34,669 bases of DNA from an uncultured Deinococcales bacterium (lineage in GTDB: Bacteria; Deinococcota; Deinococci; Deinococcales; JAAFIG01), in contig CAXTTL010000019.1 of assembly GCA_964247135.1 (NCBI GenBank), positions 1 through 34,669 on the forward strand. The letters are read 5' to 3'. Below the pieces are notes generated by a model. The model saw only the letters and a program-made list of their open reading frames with translations, had not been told where the DNA came from and made no database searches. The translations under genes were made by a program, and so were the position numbers. Of this stretch, positions 1 to 34,669 are shown piece by piece (the stretch's first letter is position 1; the number at the start of each line of letters is the position of its first letter).

Positions 1-1951
1 CTCGAGTCAGCAGTTCGGTCACGTCGTTGTGCAAGCCAAGGTCGCTGGCGTTTCGAGCCGCCTTGATGAGCCACCGTGCGGTTTGCTGCCGATTGCCTGA
101 AGCCTCCCAGTGCTGGGCGATCAATGCGGGATTGGCGGCACCTTCCTCGAGATACGCGGCGGTCTTGCCGTGCAAAACTTGTTTGATGGCGCTGGGAATG
201 CTTGCCAGCACCGCTTCAAACAACAAATCGTGCGTAAACGCATGACCGCGCAAGACCAGTGCCGTCTCGAGTTCGGCGTGGGCTTCGGCAAGTTCCATCG
301 CGGGGCGCTCGAGGACGCTGGCGGCGAGCTGAAGGTTAAACGAGGTTTTTGCCACCGCCGCCGAACGCGCCAAGCCCAGGGCAGGCGCTGAGAGCCGCTG
401 CAAGCGCCGTCCGATCAATGCCGCCACCGAGCCAGGCGGGGTCAGGCGCGAGGGCAGCCCTTGGGCGAGCGTGCCGCTTTCCATCAGGTGCTTGAGTGTC
501 TCGAGGATGAACATTGGGTTGCCGCCGGTGTAACGCGACAAGCCTTGCACCAGGTCGCTGCTGTCTTCCAAGCCCAAACCATTCAATAGTGTTTCGATGG
601 CGTTCACCTCGAGCGGTTCGACCCTAATTCTGACCGCGATTCCTGCCTCGACCAGTCCGTTCAAAGCGGATTCGGAAATGGCGAGCAGCTCTCCGCGCCT
701 GAACACGCAAATGATGTGCAAGGTCTTGTCGCCAAACCTGGTGGCGAATTTGGACATCAGATAACCCGTGGATTCGTTCGAGGCAATGTCGGAAAATTGC
801 ACGTCATCGGCAACACTGATGATCGCCTCTCGAGCCGTCATCAGCGCAGCGATGGCTTCAAAAAACCGTAGTTTTTCTACCTCAGAACCCAGCGGCGCCA
901 AGCCCTCCTCCTGGCTGAGTTCGGGCAGCAAACGCGACAGTTCACGGTGCGCCCATTTTGGAATACGCTCGAGAATCTGCGGTTCTTGTGCAATCATTTC
1001 CCGTATCGCCCGAGCCTGGGTCGAAAATGGAATTCCCGCATCGCCTGGACGCGCCTGAAAGTGAAAAACCTTACCCTTGCTGTTGGCAAAATCCAGCGCC
1101 AAACGGGTTTTACCAACCCCAGGTTCGCCCTCGAGGTAGATGATCTGCCCGCGTTGCCATGCCTCTTCCATCAGCGCCCATTCGCGTTCACGTCCTGCCA
1201 GCACGGGAGGTCGCAAGATGGCTGTTGGCAGCAGGTTTTCCCTGGGTGGTCGGCTTGCACCCGCCAGCACCGCGCCGCGCTCGACCAAGCCCATCAACTC
1301 GAGGGTTTCTATCAGGGGTTCGATGCCAAGTTCCTCCTGGAGCACAATGCGACAACGCTCCAAGCTGGCGAGCGCCGCGCGGCGATCACCCATCAAATAC
1401 TGCAACCGCGCCACTTGGCGGTACGCCTCCTCGGACAGCAGATCGAGTTTGAGCCTGAAATGCGCGAACTCGAGCGCCTGTTGCAATTGACCCATTTTTT
1501 CGAGCCGATCTGCCTCGGTCTGCGCCGCCCGTGACCGCAGCGATTTGAGTTCTTCACGCACGCCTTGTAACCATTCGTCAAAATCGGGCGCGTCATCGTA
1601 TTCGAGGTCCGCCAGCAGTTCATCGTCTTGGCGCAGCACTTCAAGCGTGGGGTTTTGCAAACTCGAGAGGCGTTGAACGTCCACGTCCACATCGGGGCGC
1701 AACTCGATTCTCTCCTCGCCGAGAATAACTTCACCCACAGCCACCCGAAGGCGGCGCAAGAGTTGGCGCATGTTGTTGCGTGCCGCCGTCTCGCCGGAAT
1801 TCGCCCACAACCAACCCGCCAACTTGTACTTGTGCGTCGCCCCCTCGAGCGCCAAAAATGCCAGCACCGCCGACGTTTTGCGCTCAAGCAGGCTCACACC
1901 GCTTGGCGTGAGCAGTTTGGGATTGCCGAACAGTTGCAACTGGTAAGTCAT
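1..1951 (-). CDS. BTAD/SARP-family transcriptional activator with AAA/STAND ATPase domain (3' end runs off the window)
   Basis: Not in the ORF track because there is no stop inside the window. Manual translation from ATG at 1951: MTYQLQLFGNPKLL...ERKTSAVLAFLALEG...LAGWLW...ARNNMRQLLRRLR (wHTH), DFDEWL...LLSEEAYRQVARLQYLMGDRRAAL...EELGIEP (BTAD), PPVLAGRERE...YLEGEPGVGKTRLA (Walker A). The same frame is still open at the window start. Confidence 0.88.
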   Translation of the reverse strand, partial: MTYQLQLFGNPKLLTPSGVSLLERKTSAVLAFLALEGATHKYKLAGWLWANSGETAARNNMRQLLRRLRVAVGEVILGEERIELRPDVDVDVQRLSSLQNPTLEVLRQDDELLADLEYDDAPDFDEWLQGVREELKSLRSRAAQTEADRLEKMGQLQQALEFAHFRLKLDLLSEEAYRQVARLQYLMGDRRAALASLERCRIVLQEELGIEPLIETLELMGLVERGAVLAGASRPPRENLLPTAILRPPVLAGREREWALMEEAWQRGQIIYLEGEPGVGKTRLALDFANSKGKVFHFQARPGDAGIPFSTQARAIREMIAQEPQILERIPKWAHRELSRLLPELSQEEGLAPLGSEVEKLRFFEAIAALMTAREAIISVADDVQFSDIASNESTGYLMSKFATRFGDKTLHIICVFRRGELLAISESALNGLVEAGIAVRIRVEPLEVNAIETLLNGLGLEDSSDLVQGLSRYTGGNPMFILETLKHLMESGTLAQGLPSRLTPPGSVAALIGRRLQRLSAPALGLARSAAVAKTSFNLQLAASVLERPAMELAEAHAELETALVLRGHAFTHDLLFEAVLASIPSAIKQVLHGKTAAYLEEGAANPALIAQHWEASGNRQQTARWLIKAARNASDLGLHNDVTELLTR

Positions 1952-2015
1952 ACAAGCCTCGTCGAAACAATTTTAAGCCCAAAACACCCTTTCAAACACG
2001 AGGCTCGAGCCAGCA

Positions 2016-2048
2016 GTCACAGCCCTGTCACACCTGTCGCGGCAACAT
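2016..2048 (+). promoter_or_regulatory. Putative SARP/BTAD-activated promoter: GTCACA direct repeats 11 bp apart plus -10-like CAACAT
   Basis: GTCACA at 2016 and 2027; CAACAT at 2043-2048; followed by SD AGGAGG at 2056-2061. Lies upstream of the divergent BTAD gene. Confidence 0.5.
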
Positions 2049-2202
2049 GCTCAGCAGGAGGAAGCCATGAACCCACAAACCAAAACACCCCGATGGCTCG
2101 AGATGGTTTCTTGATAAGCGCGACCCAACACACCATCAACCGTTCGCTCGAGATACCCGCAGCACATGGCAGGCTCGGGCTGGTTTGCGCGAGGAAAGCA
2201 TC

Positions 2203-3207
2203 ATGAAAACACAAACCAAAGAAAAACAATTTGGCTGGAAAGGGCTACTTCTAAGTTTGATTCTGAGCCTGAGCTGCACAACCGTGTATCAAACCATCGC
2301 CAGCTCGAGCGACTTGAAAACCTACCCACTGCCAGGCTTACTGGTGAATGTCGGCGGTCACCGACTGCACATCCATTGCACTGGGCAAGGCAGCCCGACG
2401 GTGGTCATGGAATCTGGCATGAGCGGCTGGTCAACGGACTGGATTTTGGTTCAACCCCAAATTGCCCAAACCACTCGAGTTTGCAGTTATGACCGCGCCG
2501 GATACGGTTGGAGTGAATCTGGACCTCAACCTCGAGACAGCCAGCAAATCAGCAGGGAATTGCGGACTTTGCTGCTTCGCGCCGGAATCCAGGGAAAATA
2601 CATTCTGGTGGGTCACTCGCTTGGTGGGTTGTTCGTTCAACTTTATGCCAAGCTTCATCCAGATCAGGTCGCCGGATTGGTGTTGATCGATTCGGTACAT
2701 CCAGCCCAATCTTTGAGGATGAACGAGGCGGTACGCCAAAAGTACGAAGGAAACCTAACGACCCTGACCAGATTCTCGAGCTTCGCCGCGCCTTCTGGAT
2801 TGCTGCGAATGTTCAACCAACCAGAAACGATCATTGCCAACAAATTGCCAGTCGAAGATCAGAACATGACTCGAGCACTTGCGTTTCAGACCAAAGCCTA
2901 CCGCGCCTTGGCGGATGAAATGGCGGTTTTTGAAGCCAGTCAACTCGAGGTGCGACAGGCGGGTGCGCTGCCAAGAATTTCGATCACCGTGCTCAGCTCG
3001 AGTTTGGTACAAGATTTTCCGCCAGGTTTTGAAGGTGACCAAATCAAAACTCTTTGGGACGAACTGCAACATGACTTCACCCGCCAAGCACCGAATGTTC
3101 TTCACCTGCAAGCCAAAAACAGCGGTCATTACATTCACCTCGACCAACCGAAATTGGTCGTTGAGGCGGTGGTGAACATGGTCAAGAAAATACGCAATTC
3201 AAACTAA
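2203..3207 (+). CDS. Alpha/beta-fold hydrolase (esterase/peptidase-like) with N-terminal membrane anchor or signal peptide
   Basis: VNVGGHRLHIHCTGQGSPTVVMESG, RVCSYDRAGYGWS, nucleophile elbow GHSLGG, C-terminal SGHYIH. SD GAGGA precedes ATG 2203 (ORF track start 2185). Confidence 0.9.
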   Translation: MKTQTKEKQFGWKGLLLSLILSLSCTTVYQTIASSSDLKTYPLPGLLVNVGGHRLHIHCTGQGSPTVVMESGMSGWSTDWILVQPQIAQTTRVCSYDRAGYGWSESGPQPRDSQQISRELRTLLLRAGIQGKYILVGHSLGGLFVQLYAKLHPDQVAGLVLIDSVHPAQSLRMNEAVRQKYEGNLTTLTRFSSFAAPSGLLRMFNQPETIIANKLPVEDQNMTRALAFQTKAYRALADEMAVFEASQLEVRQAGALPRISITVLSSSLVQDFPPGFEGDQIKTLWDELQHDFTRQAPNVLHLQAKNSGHYIHLDQPKLVVEAVVNMVKKIRNSN

Positions 3208-3252
3208 AACCATGAACCCCAGTCGCCGCCTCGAGTGTTAGACGTTTTGCCT

Positions 3253-5274
3253 TTAACGACGCCCTCGAGAACGCCCTTTCCCTTTCGCCCCAGGGATGCT
3301 CGAGGTTTTGACTTCTTTGCCCGCCAATTTCGCCTCGAGCTTCCTGATCTCGTCACGCATGGTCGCGGCTTTCTCGAAATCCATGTCCTCAGACGCCTGC
3401 CACATGTCCAACTCGAGGTCGGTGATTCGCGCCAGAATCTCGTCACGGCTGGCAAATTCGCTGGTTGGCTCAAGTTCGGGTGCTTCCTCTTCGCCACGAA
3501 TGACCTTGCGGATGCTTTTGCTGATGGTGGCTGGCGTGATGCCGTTGGCTTCGTTGTAGGCGGTTTGCAGTTCGCGCCGCCTGTTGGTTTCCGAGATCGC
3601 GTACTGCATGGCTGGCGTGATCGAATCGCCGTACAAAATCACCGTGCCATTGAGGTTTCGGGCGGCACGTCCGATGGTTTGAATCAAACTGCGCTCGGAG
3701 CGCAAAAAGCCTGGTTTGTCGGCGTCCAGAATCGTGACCAAACTGACCTCGGGCAAGTCCAGACCCTCGCGCAGCAGGTTGATGCCGACCAGCGCGTCAA
3801 AATGCCCGAGCCGCAAATCCCGAATGATTTCCTGGCGTTCAACCGTGTCAATTTCTGAGTGCAAGTACCGCGCCTTGATGCCGTGACCCACCAAATACTC
3901 GGTCAAATCTTCGCTCATGCGCTTGGTCAGGGTGGTAATCAAAACCCGTTCGTCCACCTCCGCCCTGGCGCGAATCAAGCCCAGCAAATCCTCGACCTGT
4001 CCCTTGGTGGGGCGCACCTCCACTTTGGGGTCGATCAAGCCGGTGGGTCGAATCACCTGATCGACAATTTGGCTCGAGATGCTGCGCTCGTGTTCGCCTG
4101 GGGTTGCGGACACGTAAATGACTTGCCCAACCAGATCGTAAAATTCTGGGTGCTGCAACGGGCGGTTGTCCATACAACTCGGCAGCCTGAAGCCGTAATC
4201 GGCAAGGGTTTTCTTGCGGTTGTAATCGCCCTTGTACATGCCGCCAATCTGGCTGTGCGAAATGTGGCTTTCGTCCAGAAAGGTGATGAAATTGTCGGGG
4301 AAGTAATCAAGAAGCGTGTACGGTCTGGACCCTGGCGGACGCCCGTCGATGTGCCTCGAATAATTTTCGATGCCCGAACAATAACCCAGGACTTTGAGCA
4401 TCTCGAGGTCGTAGAGCGTGCGTTCCTTGATGCGTTGCGCCTCGAGCAGCTTGCCCGTGTCGTTGAAATACTCGAGCCTTTCTTTGAGTTCCGCCTCGAT
4501 CCCCTCAATCGCGGGCTGCAAGCTGCCCGCCTCCATCACGTAATGCTTGGCGGGATAAATGATGGTGCTTTTCAGTTCCTCGAGCACCTCGCCCGTCAAA
4601 AAGTCAAAGGTCGTGATGCGTTCCAGATCGTTGCCCCACAACTCCAGGCGCATCGGTTTTTCGTCATACGATGGCCAAATCTCGAGCACGTCGCCCTTTG
4701 CCCTGAAACGCCCAGGGAAAAGCTCGATGTCGTTGCGTTCGTACTGAATCGTGACCAATCGCTCGAGGATTTCGTCGCGCCCGATGGGTTTGCCCGTCTC
4801 GAGGAAGAGATTCAGTTTGCGGTACTCTTCGGGGTTGCCCAGACCGTAAATGCAGCTTACACTGGCGACCACAATCACATCGTTGCGGGTCAGTAAACTG
4901 CGGGTGGTCGAGTGGCGCAAACGCTCGATTTCTTGGTTGATGGCGGCGTCTTTTTCGATGAACAAATCCTTGCCAGGGACGTAAGCTTCGGGTTGGTAGT
5001 AATCGTAATAACTGACGAAAAACTCGACGGCGGCACTTGGGAAAAAATCGCGGAACTCGCCCGCCAATTGCGCGGTTAAAATTTTATTCGGCGCGATGAT
5101 GAGGGCTGGGCGCTGGGTTTGTTCAATGATTTGGGCAACGCTATAGGTTTTGCCTGTGCCAGTCGCTCCGAGCAACGTCTGAAACCTGTAACCATCCTCG
5201 AGTCCTTCAACGAGCTGTTTGATCGCGGTGGGTTGATCGCCTTTGGGTGTGAATTCCGATTCGATTTTCAACAC
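3253..5274 (-). CDS. uvrB: Excinuclease ABC subunit B
   Basis: [62 protein letters not shown]-terminal UVR domain ([12 protein letters not shown]). Probable GTG start at 5274 (ORF track start 5319). Confidence 0.98.
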
Positions 5275-5377
5275 AATAACCTCAAATCTTTGCAACTCGA
5301 GCGGCGTATGTGGGTTCAAGCTCGAGTCTTTCGCAAGACCCGAGGTTTAGCATTTTAGTTTACTTCGTCCGAGTGCT

Positions 5378-5394
5378 TTCTGTAAATAGCAGAA
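5378..5394. promoter_or_regulatory. RDRM (radiation-desiccation response motif, DdrO operator)-like palindrome in the uvrB promoter
   Basis: TTCTGTAAATAGCAGAA, 17 bp with TTCTG/CAGAA arms, fits the Deinococcus RDRM consensus as I recall it. Overlaps a -35-like TTTACA (minus strand, 5381-5386) upstream of -10-like TAAACT/TAAAAT (5352-5362). Confidence 0.7.
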
Positions 5395-5461
5395 TTGTGT
5401 TTTGCTTCACCCTCACCTTTCTCAAGCAATGTTCTGCCTAGGATTTGCTACACTTTGCACC

Positions 5462-5791
5462 ATGAAACTTATGGTTGTGATCGTTCAAGATGCAGACGCG
5501 GCGGCACTCGTCAAAGAGTTCACCCAAAAACGTTTAACCGTCACCAAACTCGCCAGCACTGGCGGATTTTTACGTGAAGGCAACACCACCCTGCTCTTGG
5601 GCGTCAGTGAAACCGACCTCGAGACGGCAAAGCAAATCGTGCAAGACAAATGCCGCTCGAGAACCCGTTTTATTACCCCAGGTGTGCCCGTTGCCGAGCA
5701 ACCCGAACCGTTTTTGGCGCAACCTGTCGAAGTGCCTGTGGGTGGGGCGGTGGCTTTTATTTTGAATGTCGAAGAATTCTTTAAGGTTTAA
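5462..5791 (+). CDS. darA: PII-like cyclic-di-AMP receptor (DarA/PstA/YaaQ family)
   Basis: MKLMVVIVQDAD...TKLASTGGFLREGNTTLLLGV...VEVPVGGAVAFILNVEEF; the STGGFLxxGNTT signature and 109-aa length fit the family. ATG at 5462. Confidence 0.92.
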   Translation: MKLMVVIVQDADAAALVKEFTQKRLTVTKLASTGGFLREGNTTLLLGVSETDLETAKQIVQDKCRSRTRFITPGVPVAEQPEPFLAQPVEVPVGGAVAFILNVEEFFKV

Positions 5792-6585: not shown

Positions 6586-7068
6586 ATGAGCGATTCGTTG
6601 TTCTTTGGTCTTCGGCTTGTCGCCGTGCTCGGTTGCGCCCTGATGGCTGGGCTGTATTTTGCTTTTTCCAACACCATCATGCCCGCACTTTCAAAACTCG
6701 AGCCTTCACAGGGCATTCTTGCCATGCAAACCATCAACCGCACGATTCTCAATCCATTGTTCTTGCTGCTTTTTGTTGGCTCAGCCGCCGTTTGTGCCGT
6801 TTTGGTGATTTTTTCGCTTGGAAAATTGCCTACGTTCAATGCCATGTTGTCGATCTTTGGGTCAGTCATTTACATTCTTGGATCGCCAATCGTGACCGCC
6901 GTGTCCAATGTTCCGCTCAACGATACGTTGGTGGCACTCGCCCCAAATGCGACTGGCAGCGCCGATGGGTGGGCAACCTATCTTCAAAATTGGACGATTT
7001 GGAATCATGTCCGAACTGTGACCTCCGTTGTGGCAGCAGTGCTCCTTCTGATCGCAGATTTTAAGTGA
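6586..7068 (+). CDS. DUF1772 / anthrone-oxygenase-like membrane protein
   Basis: ALMAGLYFAFSNTIMPAL...AMQTIN...NVPLNDTL...WTIWNHVRT, four hydrophobic segments; SD AAGGAG. Confidence 0.85.
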   Translation: MSDSLFFGLRLVAVLGCALMAGLYFAFSNTIMPALSKLEPSQGILAMQTINRTILNPLFLLLFVGSAAVCAVLVIFSLGKLPTFNAMLSIFGSVIYILGSPIVTAVSNVPLNDTLVALAPNATGSADGWATYLQNWTIWNHVRTVTSVVAAVLLLIADFK

Positions 7069-9775
7069 GCGCGGCTTGCCACTCGAGTTTGGCTTCAAAA
7101 CCCATTTCGCGTTTGTAACGTGCCAAAAAGGCTTTCAGGCGCTTTGCCGCGTTTGGTTTGCGCCCAAGTTTCACCAAATTCTCGAGCAGCAAATTCATGG
7201 CACTTTCCATCAGTGGCTCGAGTTCCAAAATTCGCTCCAAGTAGATCACGGCTCGTTCGGGCGCGGCGTTTTCGGCGGCGCGTTCCAGGCTGGCGATCAC
7301 GGTTTCGTGCAGATGCTCTCGAGCCTCCGCAATCGCGGGAATGTCCACGTTCGGCGCGAGTTTTCCCGTGTACAACAGATGAATACCTTGGGCGTTTTGG
7401 GTTTTGATGGCGGCTTGAAGCTTTGCCCAGTCTGATTCGGTGCGGGTCAAATGGTGTTCGCCAATGTAGGTGCTCACCCCCCAAGGCTCGAGGCTTTTGC
7501 GCAGGGCGTTCAGGTTGACGTTAAAGTTGTTGCGCACACTTTCCAGCGGCGCATGTTCCCAAAGCATATCCGCGATGGCTTCACGGGGCGTCTCGAGCAG
7601 CAAGAGCAGCAAGATTTCTCGGGGGCGCTGCGAGAGTGTAACCTCTTCGCCTAGAACTTTAACGCGCATCTCACCGAGCACGGAAAGCTCGAGCGGCGGG
7701 ATTTCAGGCTGTCTGGCTTGAATCGCCTCGCGCCAGCCCGATTGCAACACCTCGCGCAAGTTGTACGGCAGGCTCAGTTCGGGGCGCTGGCGTGGCAGTT
7801 TCTCGAGCGGCATCAACAGCGGCAAAACCCGTTCTCGCTCGAGGGTCAAATGAAGCAGTTGCTCGAGGTCACGCGCCTCTGGTTTGATCTGGTAACGCGC
7901 CGCCACCCTGTAGATTTGATCAAAGCGTTTGAGTCCACCGTCCGGTTCGCTGGGAATGCACTCCAAGGCTTTTTTGGTTTTGCCCAAAGCGGCGAACACC
8001 AGTGCGCGTTCGCAATCGATGACGGGACTGTGTTTGTGCTCGAGAATTTTGAAAGCCGCGCTCGGGTTGCCGTTTTCGCGCAGGGTGCGTGACCAGAGCA
8101 CCAAGGTCCACTCGCCGTTCCAATTGGTCGTGTCCGAGAGCACACTGGTGATGTGGGCAAAAGGTTGCGGGTCGCGTTCCAAGTACGCCCGTTCGGCTCG
8201 AGCCTCAAGTGCCAGTTCTGGACGGTTGGCATTATAATTTTCGGTCTTCAGGCAATGCTCGAGTGCCGCCTCAAAATTGCCCGTCATCATCATCCAGAAT
8301 GCCAGGGCGTTGTGATTGTACGCGACTCGAGAGGCGGCTAGATTGGGCGTGAGCAAGTTTTGTTGGTGGTTTTGAATCGAAGTTTGCACGTCGCCGTGGC
8401 GTTCCCAGGCGATGGTCGCACGGTGTCCTCGAACCATGCGTTCGGTAAAATCGCGCCGTTCGTGCTCGAGCGGCATCAATGCCAGGGCTTGTCGCAAATA
8501 ATCTTCGGCAGGGTCCCACGCCAGGGCGTTGACAAAATAATTGGTGGCGTTCAGGTAATAATTCGAGACTTGAAGCGGGTCAGCCAGCGGAATCATTTTT
8601 TGTGCCACGGCGAGCAGCGCCTCACCTCGGACTTGGGTTTCTAAATTCCCGATCAGCATTAAAGCGAAAGCACAGGCGGCAAGGCGCTGGTTTGGGGAAG
8701 CATCGGGATGGCTAATCGCGGCGTCGTAGGCGGCGTAAGTGCGCCCATAATCGGCTTGATCCTTAAAACTGTGCGCCAAATTGATCCAGCGCCCAGGGCT
8801 GCGCTGACTGGGCAACAGCGCATCGAGCCGTTGAAAGCGCAGCGGCTCGAGCATCAGGTCTTTGTCCTCGAGCAGTGCCTCGAGTTCGCTCAGTTGTTTG
8901 GTCGTGCCGAACGCCTCCGCCAGCAATTCTTTGCAGAGGCGTTCTCGGGCATTCAGAACGCTTTGGCGCACGGTTTGCAAATGATACTCGAGCACACTTT
9001 CGGCGGCGAGCGGGTGGAGTTTAAAGCCTGGCTCGAGGATTTGCACAAAACCCAGACGCGCCAATTCAAGGGTTTGGCTGTTGGCAAATGCTTTGGGCAG
9101 GTACGGCAGCGCTGCCAGCAGCGCCAATTCCTGCCACTGCTCCAGATTGAGGCTTTCGCGCAAGCCTTCAATCAAACTTTCGCGTTCTGGCAGTTCACCG
9201 CTCAAACTCGAGCCGGTCAGCGCCATCAAATGCAGTGGCAGCGACCAGCCTCGAGATTGCTCCCAGGCGCTCTGGGCGCGGCTGTCGTTGTCAAAAAGCT
9301 GTTTGGATTCGTGAAGCGTGAACGCCAAATCTGGGGCGAACAGATGAATCAACTGTCCTGCGGTCATCAAACGCGGCAATTCGGGTTGCGAGAGCTTGCC
9401 GCGCGACGCCAGCAAGATCAAACCTGGCGGGTTTCTCAAGAGCGGTGAAATGTTCTCGCTGCCCTCCAAATCCTCGAGAATCAGCAGCGTCGGCACAGAC
9501 CACAGCACCTCGAGCACGCCGCTCCAAAGGCTCTGTTCTGGCAGTCCGAGCGCCCTGGCGGTCAACGTGCGCGGGTCTTCGCCCTGCACCGACAACCAGA
9601 CCACGCGCCAACCTTCCGCCTCGAGTTGAGCCGCCCACTGGCTGGTCAGCACGCTCTTGCCGTAACCATACGGCGCTTGCAGCCAGACCACGTACCCGCC
9701 AGCGTCGGGCAGTTGCTCGAGCAAACGACTGCGCTCGAGGTAAAGGGCATTGGCTTTGGGACGCAAACCGATCAT
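7061..9775 (-). CDS. MalT-like STAND ATPase / TPR-like / BTAD transcriptional regulator (paralog A)
   Basis: N-terminal LERSRLL...APYGYGKS (MalT-type P-loop), LLILEDL (Walker B-like), LAFTLHE, RGWSLPLHL; helical middle; C-terminal LSVLGEMRV...LWEH...RNNFNVNLNALRKSL...LELEPLMESA (wHTH-BTAD). Confidence 0.82.
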   Translation of the reverse strand: MIGLRPKANALYLERSRLLEQLPDAGGYVVWLQAPYGYGKSVLTSQWAAQLEAEGWRVVWLSVQGEDPRTLTARALGLPEQSLWSGVLEVLWSVPTLLILEDLEGSENISPLLRNPPGLILLASRGKLSQPELPRLMTAGQLIHLFAPDLAFTLHESKQLFDNDSRAQSAWEQSRGWSLPLHLMALTGSSLSGELPERESLIEGLRESLNLEQWQELALLAALPYLPKAFANSQTLELARLGFVQILEPGFKLHPLAAESVLEYHLQTVRQSVLNARERLCKELLAEAFGTTKQLSELEALLEDKDLMLEPLRFQRLDALLPSQRSPGRWINLAHSFKDQADYGRTYAAYDAAISHPDASPNQRLAACAFALMLIGNLETQVRGEALLAVAQKMIPLADPLQVSNYYLNATNYFVNALAWDPAEDYLRQALALMPLEHERRDFTERMVRGHRATIAWERHGDVQTSIQNHQQNLLTPNLAASRVAYNHNALAFWMMMTGNFEAALEHCLKTENYNANRPELALEARAERAYLERDPQPFAHITSVLSDTTNWNGEWTLVLWSRTLRENGNPSAAFKILEHKHSPVIDCERALVFAALGKTKKALECIPSEPDGGLKRFDQIYRVAARYQIKPEARDLEQLLHLTLERERVLPLLMPLEKLPRQRPELSLPYNLREVLQSGWREAIQARQPEIPPLELSVLGEMRVKVLGEEVTLSQRPREILLLLLLETPREAIADMLWEHAPLESVRNNFNVNLNALRKSLEPWGVSTYIGEHHLTRTESDWAKLQAAIKTQNAQGIHLLYTGKLAPNVDIPAIAEAREHLHETVIASLERAAENAAPERAVIYLERILELEPLMESAMNLLLENLVKLGRKPNAAKRLKAFLARYKREMGFEAKLEWQAALT

Positions 9776-9891: not shown

Positions 9892-12800
9892 ATGACCGAT
9901 AAGGGGGTTTTTATGATGGGGAGGCTCGAGGTTTGGCTGGGACGGATTTTTCGGATTGGTGCACTGGTGTTGTTGCTGGCTTTGGCAGGTTGTGGGCAAT
10001 CCCCAGAACCACCGCCGCCCACACCAGAAGGACCGCTTGGACTGCAAACCATTGGCGTGAAAACCACATTGCCAGCAGGGGTCAACCTCGACCTGGCAAC
10101 CCTCGAGGTTCAAACGGGTTCGGGCAGCAGCAAACTGAGTTCCACGGGCGAGGCGCAAAGTCAGTCGCTCGAGGGCAGCGTGTCGTTGGCGTTCTTGCGC
10201 GGCGCAAACGGCAAAATGCTGCTGGCGGGATGGGTCAGTGCCAACCAAACCCAAATCAATGCCCGCAGCACCGCCGAAGTGCTGCTGTACTTTCAATTGG
10301 GTGCGTACTTCAGCACTTCCGACGTGCGTCAACAAATCATCAGCGCCCTCTCGGGCAGCACGGCTTTAACCCCCCTCGAGCAAGCAATTGCGACCAATTT
10401 GCAGAATCATCCCGACGGGCTGAATTTGACCGACCCCGCCATTTCCAGCGCCCTGCAACAAGTCCGAGGCGTGCTGAGCGCCGCCTCGAGCAAATTTGCG
10501 AATTTAATCAAACCTCGAGGTTTGACGGTTAAACCAGATGCGCCCAAAAGCGGTATTTTGGTTAAGAAAGCCGATGCGAACCAAATTATTTTGGAGAATG
10601 CGTATCGGCGCCGTGCAGTCGCGTTTATTGACAAGCTTTCGTATGTCCCAAGTGCTGGTGGCTCGAGCATCGATGCTTTTGAAGCCAATCCAACCCTCGA
10701 CCGCGACCTGCCCGTTCCCAACGGTGTGCAAGGCGTGTTTTCTGGCACAGCCGATGTGTTGTTGTACGCCTCGAGCTTCTTCTTTGCGAACATCAATGCC
10801 AGTTTCCCTTACCAGGCTGTGGCAACCGACAAAATCGCCTTGAAACTCAAACCAGACGATGCAAAATCCACCACTTACCGTGTCAAAGTGGTCGGTGCAG
10901 GTGCAACGACTGGCGATTTAAGCATATTAACCCTAGCCCAACTCGAGACGCGAAGCAAAATCATCAAGCAAACCTTTGTGCTGGATTTGATCCTGCCGCT
11001 CATCACCAATGTGGTCTTGTCGGCTGTGACCTTGCAAGACCCCAAAACGGGCAAAGACTTGATTGACAATGCTTTTGCAAATGCCCTTAAAAGCAGTCAA
11101 TCAACCCCACTTGGCGATGCCCTAACGGTTGTGACCAATGAATTGCTTGCGCCAAAAGTCAGCCAATTGCTCGAGAATGGTAACTGGTCGAGCGCTTTCT
11201 TTGAAGCGACAGCCATCCTTGGCAATTCGACCACAGCAAAAACAGCCATTTTCAATTTGGTGAAGGTCTTGTTGCAAAAAATCATCAAAGATGCTGCTTT
11301 TGCCACGGCGACCAAAGCCGTTTTTGTTGAAGCTTCGCTCAGTGAGGCGCTGTTTATTCTGGCAATCGCGGACATCAAACTCACTTCCGACGATATCGTT
11401 AAACACCAAATTGCCGACATTCTCAACTCGAGCAGCGTCGAAAGTTTTGAAGTGACCGTTGATGCCGCCAAGGTGCGTTTAACGCCAAGCAATCACCGTT
11501 TGGGCAAACGCAAAATGCAACTCTTCAGCGCCGAGGTCGAAGACACCGCCCAATTTCCTGGAATGCGTTATGAATGGACGCTGGTCGGTGGACATGGGCA
11601 GATCATCAGTTCGGACGGCACAACGGGCAGCACCGCCGTCACCGGTACCAAAGGCGTCTATTACGTGTCTCGAGACACCCTGGGCGAGGACACCCTGAAG
11701 GTCAAGGTGCTCGGCATTGATGGTGCGCCGCCCAGCCAAATTGGTGAAGCCAGCGCCAGCATCACCGTCGAAGATGCCAAACTCGAGGTCAATCCTGGGT
11801 CGGTTTCGGGCAGTGGCACGGCAGGTGAAACCGTGACGGTGGGCATCGGTTTGGAAGCCAGGGGCAGCAACAGTATTGAGTACAATGTCAGTGGCGGCAG
11901 TCCATATTCGGTGGTGCAAAATGGCAATGGTACGCTGCCCCCAAACAAAGGCATTCAAACTCGCTTTCAGGCAGTCTGTCCCGATGTGGCTGCTGGCGGG
12001 TCGGTCACTTTAAAAGGCACGGCGATTGTCGCGGGCACAACCAAAGTTGGCACGGATACCGTGACTTTGCAGCCCATCACCGTCAACATGGCGCTGACCT
12101 GTTACGGCAAAGACCCCGACAACAATCCAGCCCGCAAAAATGGCGGGGCTTGGGGCGATCCGCACATGGTCACCTTCGATGGCTTGCATTACGAATTCCA
12201 GGCGGTCGGCGATTACACCCTCGCCAAATCCACCCAAGACGATTTTGAAGTTCAGGTGCGTTACCGCAAACCCGTCGGCGGCGTTGGCTCGGTGTCTTAC
12301 GGCGCGGGCTTGGCGGCACGGGTCGGCTCGAGCGTCGTCGAGGTTTACACCACCAGCGGCACGCCCAAAGTTTACCTCGATCAAATCCTACTCGACACCA
12401 GCAAGCCTGTCCTGCGAGATTTACCGAACAACGGCGTGCTCAGCGTGAGCGGCTACAGGGTCGTGATTTCCTGGGGCGACTCGAGCGTGGCGACCATCAA
12501 CGCTGGGGCTGAATACTTTGGCGGCATCGACCTGAACGTGCCAGGGGTTCGCACCCGCAAGCTCGAGGGTTTGCTGGGCGACGGCAACAACAACAGTTTG
12601 GATGACCTCAAAATTCGTGGCGGTGCGGTGCTGGTCAACCCGCGCCCCGCCGATATCTACACCCAGTTTCGGCAAAGTTGGCGTGTGCCGTTCGGTTCAG
12701 CCTCGAGTTTGTTCTCACAAGCCCCAGATTTGTGGGACCCGTTTTACCCACCAAACGTGGTGACGCTGCAAGATTTGGACCCTGCGGCGGTGCTGGCAGC

Positions 12801-18142: not shown

Positions 18143-18156
18143 GAATAATTCTAGCA

Positions 18157-18189
18157 ACTAAGTTTGAATTAAGTGCCACTTCATAAGCT
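18157..18189 (+). promoter_or_regulatory. A(C/T)TAAGT direct repeats 11 bp apart plus -10-like TAAGCT upstream of the Big_2 lipoprotein gene
   Basis: ACTAAGT at 18157, ATTAAGT at 18168, TAAGCT at 18184-18189. Confidence 0.55.
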
Positions 18190-19132: not shown

Positions 19133-19226
19133 GAATTTTTTTGAAGCTCGAGATACTGTGATGAGCTGTGTCTCGGCAAACGAGAAGCTCGAGTTTTGAG
19201 GCTCGAGCTTCACCACAATTTAGGTT

Positions 19227-20021
19227 TTAGATTTTGCGGGAACGAATCTCTTCTATGGCTTGCGTGGCAACCATTGCAATGGTTCTGTCTTCATGAACCA
19301 AAGTGTGATCTTTTTGCAATTCAATTAAATCTGGGATTACAGATTCATCTGCGTAAATTCCTAGAGCAGTTATCGCATCGTATTTAACATAATACCACTC
19401 GTGATTTTTTGCCAAGTCTAGGATTTTTGGAACTGCTTCTTTGACGCCGCAGTTAGCCATTAGAAAACATGCTTGACGTTGAGAATCTATATTATTACTA
19501 TCTAATAAATCCATAAGCTGAGTAGCAAACTCTGGTTGAAAATCCTCAATTATTCTGATGAAATAATATTCACACATTGATTTTTCAAATTCTACGTTTC
19601 CAATAAATTTTTTACCGAGGTCTGAAATATTCTCTTGGATGAATTGAAAAATAAGCTCTGGATGATATAAATTTATTTTTTCCGTGATCTTAAAGAAAGC
19701 TTCATGCTCTATATGGTTTTCAATAAAAATTCGAGAAAATAATTTTTCAATGTCTAAGATAGATAAATTAGATAGAATATAAGAGTTAATTTCTACTTTT
19801 ATCCTTGCAGTTCTTTCTTCAGATAATCTATCTGATTCTATTGATTCTTGCTCTGTAAAAGACCAATCATTTGTAACTGGAAGGCTCTTTAGTATTCTCT
19901 CGAGATTTCCGAACAACATTACTCCATTTATTTCCGCAAGATTTTCGCTAATGATGTTTATTTCGCCAGAATCTTGAGTCTTATTGTCAAAGTGTATTCC
20001 TGTTTTTTGATCATCATTCAT
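19227..20021 (-). CDS. AT-rich HEAT-repeat-containing protein
   Basis: C-terminal QRQACFLMANCGVKEAVPKILDLA...VKYDAITALGIYADESVIPDLIEL...ATQAIEEI are PBS-lyase/HEAT-like repeats; SD AAAGGA; very low GC. Confidence 0.7.
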   Translation of the reverse strand: MNDDQKTGIHFDNKTQDSGEINIISENLAEINGVMLFGNLERILKSLPVTNDWSFTEQESIESDRLSEERTARIKVEINSYILSNLSILDIEKLFSRIFIENHIEHEAFFKITEKINLYHPELIFQFIQENISDLGKKFIGNVEFEKSMCEYYFIRIIEDFQPEFATQLMDLLDSNNIDSQRQACFLMANCGVKEAVPKILDLAKNHEWYYVKYDAITALGIYADESVIPDLIELQKDHTLVHEDRTIAMVATQAIEEIRSRKI

Positions 20022-22801: not shown

Positions 22802-23002
22802 GGCATCCTTTGAAGGTTTTTTTGCTCGGTCTAATCAGGAAAAATCCGTGATTTTATTCAACTGGTACGCTTATTATAGCGTTTTTTGGATTTTTTAGAA
22901 GTGCAAGCTACAATCTCAATCCATTGGTGGGTGATTCTCAACATGCCATCAACCGAATTGCATATTGAACTTTTTGCCCTTGCAAATCTGGGCAGTCAAA
23001 AT

Positions 23003-23290
23003 CTGTCACATCAAGAAACACCCCAAACGCTGACAATCGAGATTCAAGATTCGGGCACGGGGTTTACAGCAGAATCTATGACTCGAGCCTTTGAACGTTT
23101 TTACCGCAGCCCCGACCGAGGATGACATGGCGGCAGTGGGTTGGAACTTGCCATCTCAAGGTCGCTGGTTGAAGCGCACGGAGGCAGGATTGAACTGGTT
23201 AAAACGGAAGCTGGGGTGTGTGTGCAGGTGACGTTGATAATGCTGTCCCAACCCGCAGAAAAATGCGACTTTGAAGTTAGTACGTGTTAA
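23003..23290 (+). pseudogene. Remnant of a sensor histidine kinase HATPase_c domain
   Basis: One frame reads TIEIQDSGTGFTAESMTRAFERFYRSPDRG*HGGSGLELAISRSLVEAHGGRIEL. G1, F and G2 boxes are present, with an internal TGA at 23123-23125, GLGLA degraded to GLELA and no upstream H or N box. Confidence 0.8.
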
Positions 23291-23448
23291 AATTTGCGTG
23301 GTTGACGATTTAAAACAGCCTCTAGAATTTATCAGGGTCAGCGTTTTATTAAACCAAGTATTGTAAGTTTGTACATTATAAGCCTCTTTTGATTCTTGAA
23401 TAAATGTACGCTTTAAACGAAATTGCTCCGTGCCACCCCCAAATCTTA

Positions 23449-23595
23449 GAGCGTGTTTATGAAGTCCATTTTGAAAAAAGTTCTCAAGGGTTTGATGTGG
23501 AAATGGCTCTAAGCTGCAAGCGATAAGCTCCAAGCCAAAAGCGCTGTTCCTTGGAGCTTGTAGCCCTGCTCGTGCGACACTTCATAAACACGCTC
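23449..23595. mobile_element. 147-bp MITE with IS5-family (IS1031-group-like) ends
   Basis: Perfect 17-bp terminal inverted repeats GAGCGTGTTTATGAAGT (23449-23465) and ACTTCATAAACACGCTC (23579-23595); TTA direct repeat on both sides (23446-48, 23596-98); no transposase. Confidence 0.85.
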
Positions 23596-23723
23596 TTAGG
23601 AGTACGGAAATCTCAAAACTCGAGATGTGCCATCCGCACCTCAAAACCCAATCCTCTTGCCTCAACAAATCAACCATCTCTCGAGCCGCAAGTCTCGAGC
23701 CTGGGCAATTGAAACAACAATCC

Positions 23724-23773
23724 TTGACAAATTGGAATAATTACGTAAAATTGACGCAAACGCATACGTCAAT
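23724..23773 (+). promoter_or_regulatory. Sigma70 promoter and LacI-family operator of the sugar operon
   Basis: TTGACA (23724-29), 16-bp spacer, TAAAAT (23746-51). Palindrome ATTGACGCAAACGCATACGTCAAT (23750-73) with central CG covers the expected start site. Confidence 0.72.
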
Positions 23774-23830
23774 ATTTCGTAAACCCCAAACGCCTCAGCT
23801 TGGCATTCTGGATTGGAGGTAGAGTCTTTC

Positions 23831-31157: not shown

Positions 31158-31225
31158 ATTTAGACTTCAATGCTTGCCTCATAGATGCTCGAGTCAGATC
31201 ACGAGTGTCACTGCATGGTTGAAGA

Positions 31226-32203: not shown

Positions 32204-32233
32204 TTTAAGTTCTCCTTGTGGTGTCGCTCGGGA

Positions 32234-32719: not shown

Positions 32720-32869
32720 TGAGACTCCTTTCTGCACGCCCGATCTTGGTGTACTCGGTCAGGCTAGTCTCGAGCCACGATCAGCAACACCCGCAAAGGT
32801 GGGTGCTTGACCCCTTACTTTCGTGGGGTAGCAATCAAGCACAAAAAGCCGATAATGGTTTAACTCGAG

Positions 32870-34225
32870 GTGCAAGTGAAAACCTGGCAATCAACCTGGA
32901 ATCGATTGAGCCTGGCTTGGAAGTTCAGCCTGGCAAGCTTGCTGGTGCTGGTGCTGACCGCGCTGGTCGTGGGTTGGTGGGTCGCGCGTGAAATCCGCGA
33001 GGGCGTCGTTCATCGCCTGGCTGCCGATGCCGCCTTGACCGTCTCGAGTGTGCTTCAACCGCAACTCCAGGGTTTCTCGAGCGATAAAGCCCTATCAACA
33101 GAACGTATTGCGGCGCTTGAGGCGGTGTTGCGTCAAATGCCACTTGGAGATCAAATCGTGTCATTGAAACTCTGGGGGACGGGGCAGCACGTGATTTACA
33201 GCACCGAGCCTTTCGATCCAACTCGAGCCTTGCCCAAAGAGAGCGAACTTGACCAAGCTTGGACTGGAGCACTTTACGCACGCTATGGACGCTCGAGCCA
33301 TCATCTTGGCAATGCCTCAGAATTTGTGGTGTACACGCCATTGCGTGTTCCAGGTTCGGAACAAATTGTGGCAATTGCCGAGTTTTCACTCAAGACCAAC
33401 GATCTCGAGCAAGCCTTGTTTTCGGCACAATTGCGCAGTTGGTTGATCGTTGGCATCGCCATGCTTGGCGCGTATTTGTTGTTGGTTGGTTTGGTCAAAC
33501 GCGGCAGTGACACAATTAACCGCCAAGGTCATGCTTTGCTCAGCGAAGCTCTCAAAAACGAGGTCTTGCGCGAACGGATTCAACGCGCCGCCAGCCGCAC
33601 GGTTGCGCTCAATGAGCGCTTCTTGCACCGCATCAGTGCCGAATTGCACGACGGTCCAACCCAGGAACTCACCTTCGCGCTGCTCAAGCTCGACAGCCTG
33701 GCACACCACCCCAACGAAGCCGCCGATTTTGTGGTGCTCGAGGCAGCGCTGGACAAAGCCATGCGTGAAACTCGAGCCATTGCCACGGGCTTGCGCTTGC
33801 CCGACCTCGAGCCGCTGAGCTTGCAAGAGGTGCTTGACCGTGCCGTGCGTGACCACAAACGCCGCACCGAAAGCGAGGTCAGCGTTTGTGTTGAACCTTT
33901 GCTCGAGCCTGTGCCACTAACCGTGAAAATCACAGCGTTTCGGGTGATTCAAGAATCGCTGACCAATGCCTTCAGACACGGTGGCGGCATCAACCAACGT
34001 GTAAGCCTCAAATCCAGTGACAGTTGGCTGGTGCTCGAGGTTGCCGATGACGGATCAGGTTTTGCCTGCCCAGACCAAGCCATCTCGAGCGAACATTTGG
34101 GTTTGGCTGGAATGCGCGAACGCATCGAAAGCATCGGCGGTGGCTTCGAGGTCATCAGCACACCAGGGCAAGGCACGCGCATCCTCGCCCACCTGCCCTT
34201 GCGACTCGAGTACAGCGATGACTGA
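32870..34225 (+). CDS. Membrane sensor histidine kinase (NarX/HisKA_3 type)
   Basis: Two TM helices; H-box ISAELHDGPTQ; FRVIQESLTNAFRHG; DDGSGF; HLGLAGMRER; PGQGT. Confidence 0.93.
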   Translation: MQVKTWQSTWNRLSLAWKFSLASLLVLVLTALVVGWWVAREIREGVVHRLAADAALTVSSVLQPQLQGFSSDKALSTERIAALEAVLRQMPLGDQIVSLKLWGTGQHVIYSTEPFDPTRALPKESELDQAWTGALYARYGRSSHHLGNASEFVVYTPLRVPGSEQIVAIAEFSLKTNDLEQALFSAQLRSWLIVGIAMLGAYLLLVGLVKRGSDTINRQGHALLSEALKNEVLRERIQRAASRTVALNERFLHRISAELHDGPTQELTFALLKLDSLAHHPNEAADFVVLEAALDKAMRETRAIATGLRLPDLEPLSLQEVLDRAVRDHKRRTESEVSVCVEPLLEPVPLTVKITAFRVIQESLTNAFRHGGGINQRVSLKSSDSWLVLEVADDGSGFACPDQAISSEHLGLAGMRERIESIGGGFEVISTPGQGTRILAHLPLRLEYSDD

Positions 34226-34669
34226 ACTCATTCGCGTGATCGTGGTGGACGACCACCCCCTGGTGCGCGATGGTGTGGTGGCGGCACTCGAGCCAGAAAA
34301 CGATATTGCCGTTGTCGGTCAGGGCGCAACAGCCGCCGATGCCGTGCAACTTGCCCAGGATTTGCTGCCCAACCTGATCTTGCTCGACATCGCCATGCCA
34401 GGCGGTGGACTGAGTGCCGTGCGTGCCATCGCTGAAACTTGCCCAGTCTCGAGGATGGTGATGCTGACCTCTTCGGAGGAGGAGGCACACGTGCTTGCCG
34501 CATTGCGGGCGGGCGCTCGAGGCTACGTGGTCAAGGGCGTGACTGGGCGTGAATTGCGTGGCATCGTGCGAGCTGTCCATCGCGGCGAGGTCTGTGTCTC
34601 GCCCAGTTTGGCGGCGGATGTGCTCTCGGAAATGGCTTCGGCATCCAGCAATCCAAGCGCCAGTCTGCT
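34218..34669 (+). CDS. NarL/LuxR-family response regulator (truncated by the window end)
   Basis: Not in the ORF track. MTELIRVIVVDDHPLVRDG...LILLDIAMPGGG...MLT...ALRAGARGYVVKG; the start overlaps the kinase 3' end (ATGACTGA). Confidence 0.93.
   Translation, partial: MTELIRVIVVDDHPLVRDGVVAALEPENDIAVVGQGATAADAVQLAQDLLPNLILLDIAMPGGGLSAVRAIAETCPVSRMVMLTSSEEEAHVLAALRAGARGYVVKGVTGRELRGIVRAVHRGEVCVSPSLAADVLSEMASASSNPSASL

Follow-up and report, generated by a model that had tools for sequence, protein, structure and literature searches.

CTCGAG is a highly iterated palindrome in a family of Deinococcales and recurs across the Deinococcota

Why should one six-base palindrome be written into a bacterial genome once per ~150 bases? 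The question is raised by a stretch of 34,669 bases from an uncultured Deinococcales bacterium, a relative of Deinococcus and Thermus (contig C19 of assembly G000, which has 5.09 Mb in 386 contigs and is 84% complete; the whole stretch is called the window below), in which a first-pass annotation had noticed a great abundance of the word CTCGAG and had likened it to HIP1, the highly iterated palindrome (HIP) of cyanobacteria. The hand counts behind that remark were exact (our site listing has 13 copies in bases 1-2000 and 39 in bases 1-5400). We found 238 sites in the window (6.86 per kb), when dinucleotide-preserving shuffles of the same sequence hold 6.86 on average (standard deviation 2.6, maximum 14; none of 100 shuffles reached 238), which amounts to a ~35-fold excess. 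The abundance extends to the rest of the genome: G000 contains 33,925 copies, or 24.7 times the zero-order expectation, at a density of 6.66 per kb. No other 6-mer of G000 is even half as common. A Markov expectation of maximal order was discarded as uninformative, as CTCGAG dominates its own 5-mers and unrelated TCGA words then appear enriched.

The unit that is repeated in G000 is the hexamer. Its flanks are weak, with G at -1 in 39% and A at -3 in 37% of sites and a preference for G at -1 and C at +1, and 4,225 sites (12.5%) fall within the 8-mer GCTCGAGC; the unit is therefore the 6-mer with variable flanks, as had been claimed. The TaqI core TCGA, which the first-pass annotation had also brought up, is not the unit, since outside CTCGAG it occurs 20,685 times against ~19,800 expected (our own arithmetic) and is thus not enriched. 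None of 4,088 segments of 3 kb holds fewer than three sites, and those below 42% GC (guanine plus cytosine) still average 3.4 per kb, although composition-based binning may have stripped atypical DNA from the assembly, in which the 16S gene was not found. Neighbouring sites are spaced with a coefficient of variation of 0.96, and gaps shorter than 24 bases or of 400-800 bases are too few. In G000 no two sites stand at a gap of exactly 6, the spacing that would yield GAGCTC.

Genes were taken from a simple in-house caller (4,321 genes, 85.5% coding), and the DNA called non-coding may hold a few missed genes. The coding DNA of G000 carries 28,610 sites (6.57 per kb): 17,855 in frame CTC-GAG, 4,200 in frame xCT-CGA-Gxx and 6,555 in frame xxC-TCG-AGx, which exceed a synonymous-codon shuffle 5.8-, 14.6- and 11.5-fold, respectively. 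Under a codon permutation null, the observed/expected ratio is 16.8 overall. A dicodon-preserving shuffle retains CTC-GAG by construction, and these two nulls were used instead, together with non-coding DNA; both are conservative, because CTCGAG itself has bent codon usage. In the non-coding DNA we counted 5,348 sites (7.16 per kb) when ~150 are expected, a ~35-fold excess. The word is thus present in all three codon frames and between genes, as first described, and within the window, too, it is not confined to one frame (Table 1; the non-coding density there is 26 sites in 3,266 nucleotides, or 7.96 per kb). The 11-15-fold excess of the two off-frames over the synonymous shuffle also upholds the view that no simple codon or amino-acid effect is at work. 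Outside the word, CTC accounts for 15.5% of Leu codons and GAG for 32.7% of Glu codons.

The copies share nothing but the word. Among the 5,319 non-coding sites whose context is complete, we counted 5,298 different 26-mers; the information content of the flanks is at most 0.11 bit per position, and the site density is 7.8 per kb in convergent, 6.9 in divergent and 7.6 in co-oriented spacers. Distinct contexts, together with a similar density in all spacer types, indicate that CTCGAG is neither a repeat element nor a part of promoters or terminators; flanks common among copies, as expected of dispersed repeats of the repetitive extragenic palindrome or miniature inverted-repeat transposable element type, were not found among the non-coding sites of G000. 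The only context that recurs among these sites is the repeat of a CRISPR-like (clustered regularly interspaced short palindromic repeat) array. This array, at C221:7029-8104 (and C9:64-135), has 16 repeats spaced 70-75 bases apart, with CTCGAG inside the repeat.

How the word is maintained was examined by aligning 1.18 Mb of a genome of the same genus, G005, to G000, which gave 861 kb at 85.3% identity. The comparison is pairwise and unpolarised; gains are not separated from losses, and selection and biased conversion give one and the same pattern. In-frame CTCGAG is retained whole in 87% of cases. The third base of CTC was changed in 7.1% of cases before GAG versus 36.7% before other codons, and that of GAG in 5.8% after CTC versus 37.9% after other codons. 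Conversely, CTT is aligned with CTC in 75 of 115 cases before GAG versus 18% elsewhere, and GAA with GAG in 104 of 198 cases after CTC versus 14% elsewhere; one-step neighbours stand opposite a full CTCGAG with 3.6-4.8 times the frequency of the equal base change elsewhere. Per mutational step, the equilibrium odds, forward to back, shift by ~12-fold and ~29-fold, that is, by our own arithmetic, a scaled pressure of ~2.5-3.4 per step. In the first 280 kb, non-coding CTCGAG was fully conserved in 74% of cases versus 44% for other 6-mers, and non-coding DNA is under as strong a pressure as synonymous sites are. Whichever position of the motif is taken, one of the three frames places it at a synonymous third codon base. 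The protection measured there amounts to factors of 2.8, 2.4, 5.4, 4.2, 3.0 and 4.7 for positions 1 to 6, and loss of existing copies is 2.4-5.4 times slower than change at matched neutral positions. Transversions within the word are suppressed 2.7-7.5-fold and transitions 1.05-5.2-fold, most weakly at positions 2 and 5. Since all six positions are protected, it is the whole word that is read and not the cytosines alone.

The pressure for CTCGAG overrides protein sequence. Leu-Glu is the most over-represented dipeptide of G000, with 23,170 copies, a surplus of ~13,000 and an observed/expected ratio of 2.35; the ratio for Glu-Leu is 1.01. As many as 17,855 of the Leu-Glu dipeptides (77%) are spelled CTCGAG, when ~5% would be expected. 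The effect reaches the conserved uvrB gene of the window, where the first-pass annotation had pointed it out. Among the 14 sites there (6.8 per kb), 11 encode Leu-Glu, 2 lie in the TCG-AGx frame and 1 in the CGA frame. The best structure matches of this UvrB are PDB 1c4o and 1d2m, which we take to be from Thermus thermophilus. Among diverse homologs (80 loci kept of at least 600; best identity 60%), the column of E174 most often holds Arg (31, with Glu in 16), that of E186 holds Arg in 41 and Glu in 5, and that of E662 holds Arg or Lys in 49 of 67 and Glu in 10. In the 66 tRNA genes of G000 we found 10 copies of the word, when 34 would be expected at the genome density and 1.4 from composition.

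Comparison of uvrB within the family and with its sister family (the numbers are positions in the coding sequence, CDS) gives some idea of the age of the sites. At 516, the sister family has CTGAAG (Leu-Lys), and the site was therefore created by an amino-acid change on the family stem; at 1980 the sister family has ATCGAG, and the site at 1241 is missing from all the sister-family genomes examined. Sites 516, 1980, 912, 1241 and 843 are common to 12-14 of the 14-15 family genomes with data. Site 552 is younger and still turning over, given that 8 of 15 family genomes have it. Others are specific to genera, such as 735 in genus g1 only and 693 in g5 plus G010. Shared and genus-specific sites together point to old sites plus ongoing turnover.

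In what follows, G-numbers denote genomes, f families and g genera, f1 being the family of G000. CTCGAG is abundant in 18 of 18 f1 relatives (five genera, 57-94% complete, one of them a single contig), at 4.3-6.8 per kb. Together with the 24.7-fold excess in G000, this bears out the proposal of a HIP1-like palindrome, both genome- and lineage-wide, outside the cyanobacteria. The sampled f1 loci span 45-60% GC, and in those from the other genera of the family the word occurs at 7-11 per kb, both in spacers and in each of the frames. The closest sister family by UvrB identity is f3 (70-71%), and its main genus, g7, avoids CTCGAG (128-457 copies per 4.2-4.8 Mb; 0-1 per 20 kb at 66-70% GC).

A survey of the phylum, in which 364 genomes were counted for the 8-mer GCTCGAGC with its reversed form as control (genome G250 enters these tallies only), gave a patchwork. 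The 8-mer occurs 310-912 times per Mb in f1 (reversed control 0-165 per genome) and 250-940 times per Mb in many f2 genera and in genus g22 of f5 (reversed control low); in other f2 genera it is about as frequent as its control. The 111 genomes of g7 hold 4-199 copies each and the 32 genomes of g9 hold 2-56, and two of the latter, G022 and G026, each have ~2,000 CTCGAG despite the few 8-mers. Genus g55 of f3 includes G303 (1.9 Mb), with 3,525 copies of the 8-mer (reversed control 1), G304 (3.5 Mb), with 3,329 (control 4), and G305 (2.3 Mb), with 42 (control 16). Across the phylum, we also observed that the reversed 8-mer is low in the lineages enriched for the word.

Sampled DNA bore these counts out. 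In g55, CTCGAG occurs at 10.8 per kb in G303 and 7.2 per kb in G304, in all frames and in spacers, versus 0.2 per kb in their congener G305, and the trait is thus on or off between relatives. Densities of 2.5-3.2 per kb were found in G168 (f2 g41), G128 (f5 g22) and G116 (f5 g13; like g22, a genus with isolate-quality genomes); in all three, CTCGAG is the top 6-mer and its off-frames stand above the synonymous shuffle. In four further genomes most sampled sites lie inside GCTCGAGC (11 of 11 in G345, 12 of 14 in G180, 13 of 17 in G165 and 26 of 38 in G027), and the unit there is therefore the 8-mer. The high-GC genome G025 (f4) shows 63 of 67 sampled coding sites in the CTC-GAG frame versus 37 expected from the synonymous shuffle, and this count is mostly a codon effect. 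CTCGAG enrichment thus recurs across the Deinococcota and is not peculiar to one lineage, while two large genera, g7 and g9, strongly avoid the word or its 8-mer form. Among viral contigs, at least 126 stretches have three CTCGAG within ~100 bases, and 80 of these were examined; the densest loci among the matches listed (2.7-7.1 per kb, 60-73% GC, most of them rich in GAGCTC and GGCC) are a codon effect and not the f1 signature.

Has the word accumulated once or several times? The UvrB of G303 and G304 is 74-76% identical to that of f3 and 70-72% to that of f1. Their uvrB genes coincide with the widely shared sites of f1 only at 693, 873, 912 and 1980, which are the positions where Leu-Glu-like dipeptides pre-existed. 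They are without the f1 signature sites 516, 1241, 843 and 1845 and have common sites of their own at 1097, 1428 and 1755. This pattern indicates that CTCGAG accumulated at least twice.

As CTCGAG is the recognition word of XhoI and PaeR7I, the first-pass annotation had suggested a link with a methyltransferase of XhoI/PaeR7I or TaqI type, a suggestion that the gene content of f1 does not favour. Neither the XhoI nuclease family (PF04555) nor its partner methyltransferase was found in any of the 19 f1 genomes. The nuclease occurs in 7 of 251 genomes of the order (f4 5 of 23, f2 1 of 71, f5 1 of 68), and in G021 and G105 it lies tail to tail with a 340-amino-acid PF01555 methyltransferase. Homologs of this methyltransferase (E <= 1e-40) are present in 43 of 364 genomes: 0 of 125 in f3, 13 of 23 in f4, 27 of 68 in f5 (24 of 32 in g9) and 3 of 128 in f2 (G027, G345 and G228), with 0 of 3 in g55 and 0 of 4 in g22. 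Since both nuclease and partner were found in sister families, the searches work, and an XhoI-type system is excluded as the agent in f1. Two of the three f2 genomes with the solitary methyltransferase (G027 and G345) are enriched for GCTCGAGC. In g9 the same family accompanies avoidance of GCTCGAGC; the enzyme there is a ~300-amino-acid relative, 62-66% identical and in some genomes within open frames of 560-620 amino acids, which suggests a restriction system that would read the 8-mer. We know of no described restriction specificity for GCTCGAGC.

A conserved orphan methyltransferase of another kind also seems unlikely in f1. No methyltransferase family of PF00145, PF01555, PF02384 or PF07669 is both universal in and specific to f1, and the search for an orphan enzyme, which the first-pass annotation had proposed, brought up none shared across the family in these four. 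In the closed genome G011, PF01555 is without a match, and G008 lacks a C5 methyltransferase. Several candidates were rejected individually. The solitary PF01555 enzyme on contig C36 is present in only 5 of 18 f1 relatives, and the HsdM-like enzyme on C169 is sporadic across f1. The N6 enzymes of ~500 amino acids form non-orthologous clusters with 25-40% mutual identity that do not follow the species tree. The methyltransferases of G011 are at best 42% and 32% identical to those of G000, versus 84% for UvrB. A motif-IV regular-expression screen brought up 14 further proteins, 10 with unrelated Pfam matches (including PrmC), 2 with DUF559 and 2 with no Pfam match. We say unlikely and no more because the assemblies are incomplete, the survey covered four classes, D12 not among them, and one enzyme may take the place of another with the same specificity.

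Apart from CTCGAG, G000 has few palindromes. GAGCTC does not occur at all in the 5.09 Mb of G000, when ~1,100 copies would be expected from Glu-Leu codon usage (our own arithmetic), and it is near-absent from most f1 genomes; the window has none, and only 2 GGCC. Other counts in G000 are 1 for GGGCCC, 3 for CGGCCG, 4 for AGGCCT, 5 for CGTACG, 7 for GGATCC, 11 for CCGCGG, 15 for CAGCTG and 380 for GGCC. This poverty fits the set of restriction-modification genes that G000 carries (Table 1), four pairs of which lie on contigs C14, C178, C189 and C207. A D12-class methyltransferase overlapping a SacI-family nuclease on C320 is likely to be behind the absence of GAGCTC; homologs of this pair were not found in 1.89 Mb of sampled DNA of relatives. 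The avoided words outnumber the systems found in G000, which suggests that the genome has long been exposed to systems that come and go.

The restriction-modification genes of G000 overall carry 4.9 CTCGAG per kb. The MvaI/BcnI-type pair has a single site in 1,554 nucleotides, and its methyltransferase was missed by the codon-usage gene caller; the pair has the look of a newcomer in which CTCGAG is still to accumulate. A HEAT-repeat gene is the CTCGAG-poorest stretch of the window, where the largest gap between sites (697 bases) begins at 19202, and it looks foreign and recently acquired. The remark that the word is scarce in foreign-looking DNA stands for these two cases, with one site each, and does not extend to low-GC DNA at large, given the 3-kb segments described above (none with fewer than three sites; 3.4 per kb below 42% GC). 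As to the other genes of the window, three large neighbours (904, 1,835 and 905 amino acids) are among those richest in CTCGAG; Pfam gave no match for two of them and nothing beyond a von Willebrand factor D domain for the third. The gene for a cyclic-di-AMP receptor family protein that adjoins uvrB is 90-93% identical at the DNA level in genomes of the same genus.

Table 1. Positions of features in the window and of related genes elsewhere in G000 (a C-number before the colon is a contig; other positions are those of the window)
Feature	Position	Strand	Remarks
Whole window	1..34669		137 CTC-GAG, 26 xCT-CGA-Gxx, 48 xxC-TCG-AGx, 26 non-coding, 1 gene edge
uvrB	3256..5319	-	Pfam UvrB domains; 14 CTCGAG (6.8 per kb)
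uvrB site CDS 1980 (L661-E662)	3334..3339	-	present in 14 of 14 family genomes with data
uvrB site CDS 1241, xxC-TCG-AGx (I414-S415-S416)	4073..4078	-	present in 13 of 15 family genomes
uvrB site CDS 552 (L185-E186)	4762..4767	-	present in 8 of 15 family genomes
uvrB site CDS 516 (L173-E174)	4798..4803	-	present in 13 of 15 family genomes
Cyclic-di-AMP receptor family protein	5402..5788	+	PF06153, 137 bits; adjoins uvrB
904-amino-acid gene	7064..9775	-	no Pfam match; 27 CTCGAG (10.0 per kb), among densest in window
1,835-amino-acid gene	9892..15396	+	
905-amino-acid gene	15443..18157	-	27 CTCGAG (9.9 per kb), among densest in window
HEAT-repeat gene	19230..20021	-	GC 32.4% (window 54%); 1 CTCGAG (1.3 per kb)
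Long spacer between genes	22802..23812		4 CTCGAG, at 23082, 23619, 23680 and 23694
NgoPII-type nuclease + C5 methyltransferase			
Eco29kI-type nuclease + C5 methyltransferase			
MvaI/BcnI-type nuclease + PF01555 methyltransferase	C189:4080-5632		GC 38-40%
Weak NotI-like nuclease + PF01555 methyltransferase			
Solitary PF01555 enzyme	C36		
HsdM-like enzyme	C169		
Two MmeI-like enzymes			
Eco57I-like enzyme			1,499 amino acids
D12-class N6-adenine methyltransferase overlapping SacI-family nuclease	C320:1064-2985		277 and 364 amino acids; nuclease 29.7 bits
Small DUF559 (PF04480) genes	C290:108-440, C252:2763-3125, C61:2806-3117, C142:2030-2329		two of them 92% identical

What kind of process could write one word so insistently? 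We are confident that it is a pressure acting in trans, on the whole word and on each site autonomously, and that it is not codon usage, repeats or restriction of the XhoI type. A sequence-specific factor, gained or lost by lineages, would exert this pressure in trans, and the pressure is directional, acting on each copy separately, wherever it is located. With ~34,000 copies, each under a 12-29-fold bias and at a cost to proteins, we judge a transmission bias (biased gene conversion) likelier than a separate function for each copy. We tentatively favour, as one possibility among several, a tag for uptake or recombination: CTCGAG may be a self-tag that is read during DNA exchange, word-bearing DNA or alleles being preferentially taken up, recombined or kept in heteroduplex repair, and the word would thereby spread through the gene pool. 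The presence of the uptake machinery in G000, ComEC (155 bits) and DprA (236 bits), is weak evidence for such a tag, and the mildly even spacing of the sites also speaks for it. In the accessible parts of the HIP1 literature, methylated HIP1 is described as raising natural transformation (10.1101/2024.09.10.611283), and HIP1 abundance as correlating with type IV secretion system proteins, with a role as a DNA-uptake sequence proposed (PMC13756078); a tag for uptake or recombination would be in line with both. One might go further and speculate, although we think it unlikely in this full form, that GCTCGAGC/CTCGAG is a kin-recognition tag for natural transformation across the Deinococcota, with a transferable reader, with or without methylation, a word that has driven itself to ~34,000 copies, independent switching-on in separate lineages, and purging where CTCGAG-specific restriction enzymes occur.

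A number of points weigh against a tag of this kind. Known uptake sequences occur about once per kb, far below one per 150 bases. ComEC and DprA, being nearly universal, are no specific proof, and no receptor or reader protein was identified, receptor candidates not having been searched for. A receptor passed on vertically would fit the combination of recurrence in separate lineages and avoidance in others less well than a mobile recognition module, for example a methyltransferase, and two genomes enriched for GCTCGAGC do hold a solitary XhoI-family methyltransferase. The effect on transformation in cyanobacteria needs methylation, yet no shared methyltransferase was found in f1. Unpolarised pairwise data, moreover, look alike under selection and under biased conversion, and the viral contigs, which gave codon-effect loci, do not discriminate between the two.

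If methylation were central, as Elhai proposed for HIP1, a solitary methyltransferase of a class or lineage that we have not recognised would mark CTCGAG, and the mark would guide the choice of strand in mismatch repair or serve some other epigenetic function, sites being created and kept in the process. This is possible, if somewhat doubtful. According to the accessible part of Elhai (2015, PMC4390886), cyanobacterial HIPs co-occur with methyltransferases of matching specificity, and the preference for G at -1 and C at +1 recalls the 'GmC' idea put forward there. CTCGAG-specific modules do circulate in the phylum (XhoI nucleases in 7 of 251 genomes, each one examined lying beside a 340-amino-acid PF01555 enzyme; the linked methyltransferase family in 43 of 364), and G027 and G345 hold the enzyme with no XhoI nuclease detected and enrich GCTCGAGC (26 of 38 and 11 of 11 sites). 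Yet the same family is absent from f1 (0 of 19), from g55 (0 of 3) and from g22 (0 of 4), it is present in G228 with no enrichment, and in g9 (24 of 32) it goes with avoidance. Enrichment in some lineages and avoidance in others is what restriction-modification modules would be expected to leave if they were the source, and G000 does have an enzyme of the D12 class, which was outside the survey of relatives; but G011 is without a PF01555 match and G008 without a C5 methyltransferase, the N6 enzymes of ~500 amino acids are non-orthologous (25-40% identical), and the methyltransferases of G011 reach only 42% and 32% identity to those of G000 when UvrB reaches 84%. There is also no excess of C-to-T changes at the cytosines of the word, and so no hot-spot signature of 5-methylcytosine. 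A neutral drive by sequence-specific mismatch correction, resembling very-short-patch repair, would have a nuclease nick mismatches near the site and repair restore or create the word, which itself would have no function. The data show both slower loss and faster gain, and transitions at C/G positions are suppressed 1.7-5.2-fold versus 1.05-1.7-fold for T-to-C and A-to-G at positions 2 and 5. Vsr raises the frequency of CCWGG in E. coli, and G000 has four small DUF559 proteins, which we take to be related to the Vsr mismatch endonucleases. Such a drive is improbable, however: Vsr itself (PF03852) had no match in G000, at 84% completeness, homologs of the DUF559 proteins were not found in 1.89 Mb of sampled DNA of relatives, a small sample, the 3.9-7.5-fold suppression of transversions at T/A positions is unexplained by T:G-specific repair, and a 25-fold enrichment is far above the E. 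coli case.

Direct selection for a chromosomal function has as little to recommend it in terms of probability. CTCGAG would here be bound by an abundant protein of the nucleoid or of chromosome condensation, which needs many evenly spread copies, and the uniform cover of the genome (0 of 4,088 segments with fewer than three sites), the few very short gaps and mild regularity (coefficient of variation 0.96) and the positional conservation of sites all agree with it; Xu et al. (2018, PMC5861425, in the part accessible) argued for such a role of HIP1 from conservation and a 10-90 kb periodicity. Each of ~34,000 copies could contribute only little, yet each is held with a 12-29-fold bias, at a price that includes Arg-to-Glu changes in UvrB; the trait is missing from the congener G305 and from whole sister genera of similar biology, and no candidate protein was found. 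That no special process is involved, the word being a matter of codon or dipeptide usage, a repeat family or an artefact of assembly or binning, has next to no probability and is already refuted for f1 by the nulls, the codon usage and the unique contexts. Much of the count in high-GC sister genomes is indeed a codon effect (63 of 67 sites versus 37 expected in G025), and composition-based binning could in principle remove word-free DNA. The non-coding excess is 35-fold, however, the off-frames exceed the synonymous shuffle 11-15-fold, CTC and GAG outside the word reach only 15.5% and 32.7% of their codons, non-coding contexts are unique, and the trait is found in 19 independent assemblies, including a closed genome, at 45-60% GC.

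CTCGAG is a true highly iterated palindrome and a strong counterpart of HIP1. It shows the marks of that class, with an excess of at least ~15-fold, presence in all frames and in non-coding DNA, conservation beyond background and spread over a whole lineage; as to the matching methyltransferase that goes with the class, none of the XhoI family was found in 19 f1 genomes and no shared enzyme in four Pfam families, in assemblies 57-94% complete. To judge from the accessible parts of the work on HIP1 (GCGATCGC) and the alternate cyanobacterial palindromes (PMC4390886, PMC5861425, the latter on the conservation and periodicity of HIP1), the two have in common a short GC-rich palindrome tens of times over expectation, lying in genes in all frames and between genes, conserved between species beyond background, and lineage-wide with exceptions among close relatives; in both, related words replace one another, CTCGAG and GCTCGAGC here as CGATCG within GCGATCGC. 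The word is likewise found in a CRISPR repeat, as reported for HIP1 in Synechocystis in the accessible part of PMC6604393, and in a genome otherwise poor in palindromes. CTCGAG differs in phylum, in sequence and in its length of 6 bases; it is denser (6.7 per kb versus 0.3-2.7 per kb for HIP1 in Table 2 of Elhai, PMC4390886) and more than doubles the frequency of one dipeptide. HIP1, moreover, is usually accompanied by enzymes of DmtA and DmtC type, whereas no matching methyltransferase was found in f1, and sister genera of f1 strongly avoid the word.

Other systems offer partial likenesses. The DNA uptake sequences of Neisseria and the uptake signal sequences of the Pasteurellaceae are over-represented genome-wide in genes and spacers, reshape proteins, are spaced more evenly than chance and are kept by biased transmission, not by what each copy does. 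CTCGAG is likewise genome-wide in genes and spacers and reshapes proteins, in a genome with ComEC and DprA. The uptake sequences are 9-12 bases long, non-palindromic and present about once per kb, with biased uptake and a receptor demonstrated, whereas CTCGAG is a palindrome of 6 bases with a role in uptake that is only proposed. XhoI and PaeR7I restriction-modification shares the recognition word, and such systems exist in sister families of the order; but restriction depletes its site, as g7 and g9 show for the word or the 8-mer, and f1 is enriched and without the XhoI nuclease and partner methyltransferase families. In the Dcm/Vsr system of E. coli, mismatch correction also raises the frequency of a short palindrome, CCWGG; there the effect is small and only the position of the methylated cytosine is protected, whereas in G000, which has no Vsr match, all six positions are.

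We found no published report of CTCGAG hyper-abundance in any bacterium, in a search that did not cover subscription journals; the accessible part of Elhai (2015, PMC4390886) treats alternate HIPs in cyanobacteria only and mentions neither 'CTCGAG' nor 'Deinococc'. New are the recurrence across the phylum in 364 genomes, the independent origin in two genomes of a sister family, the lineages with the 8-mer variant and the two avoiding genera. HIP1 has gone unexplained for some thirty years, in part because its known occurrence was limited to a single phylum, and the long-unexplained iterated palindromes of cyanobacteria now have a second natural system beside them. It comes with natural contrasts: a family at full strength, two full-strength genomes beside a word-free congener, 8-mer lineages, weaker isolate-quality genomes and two purging genera. 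These contrasts permit comparative and experimental tests of which gene tracks the trait, of methylation, and of bias in uptake, recombination or repair. A six-base DNA word can override protein evolution, more than doubling Leu-Glu and reversing charges in UvrB, which is of relevance to models of codon usage, to phylogenetics and to composition-based binning. If the speculation of a kin-recognition tag were true, iterated palindromes, HIP1 included, would be general, convergent tags of self-DNA in restriction-rich, naturally competent bacteria.

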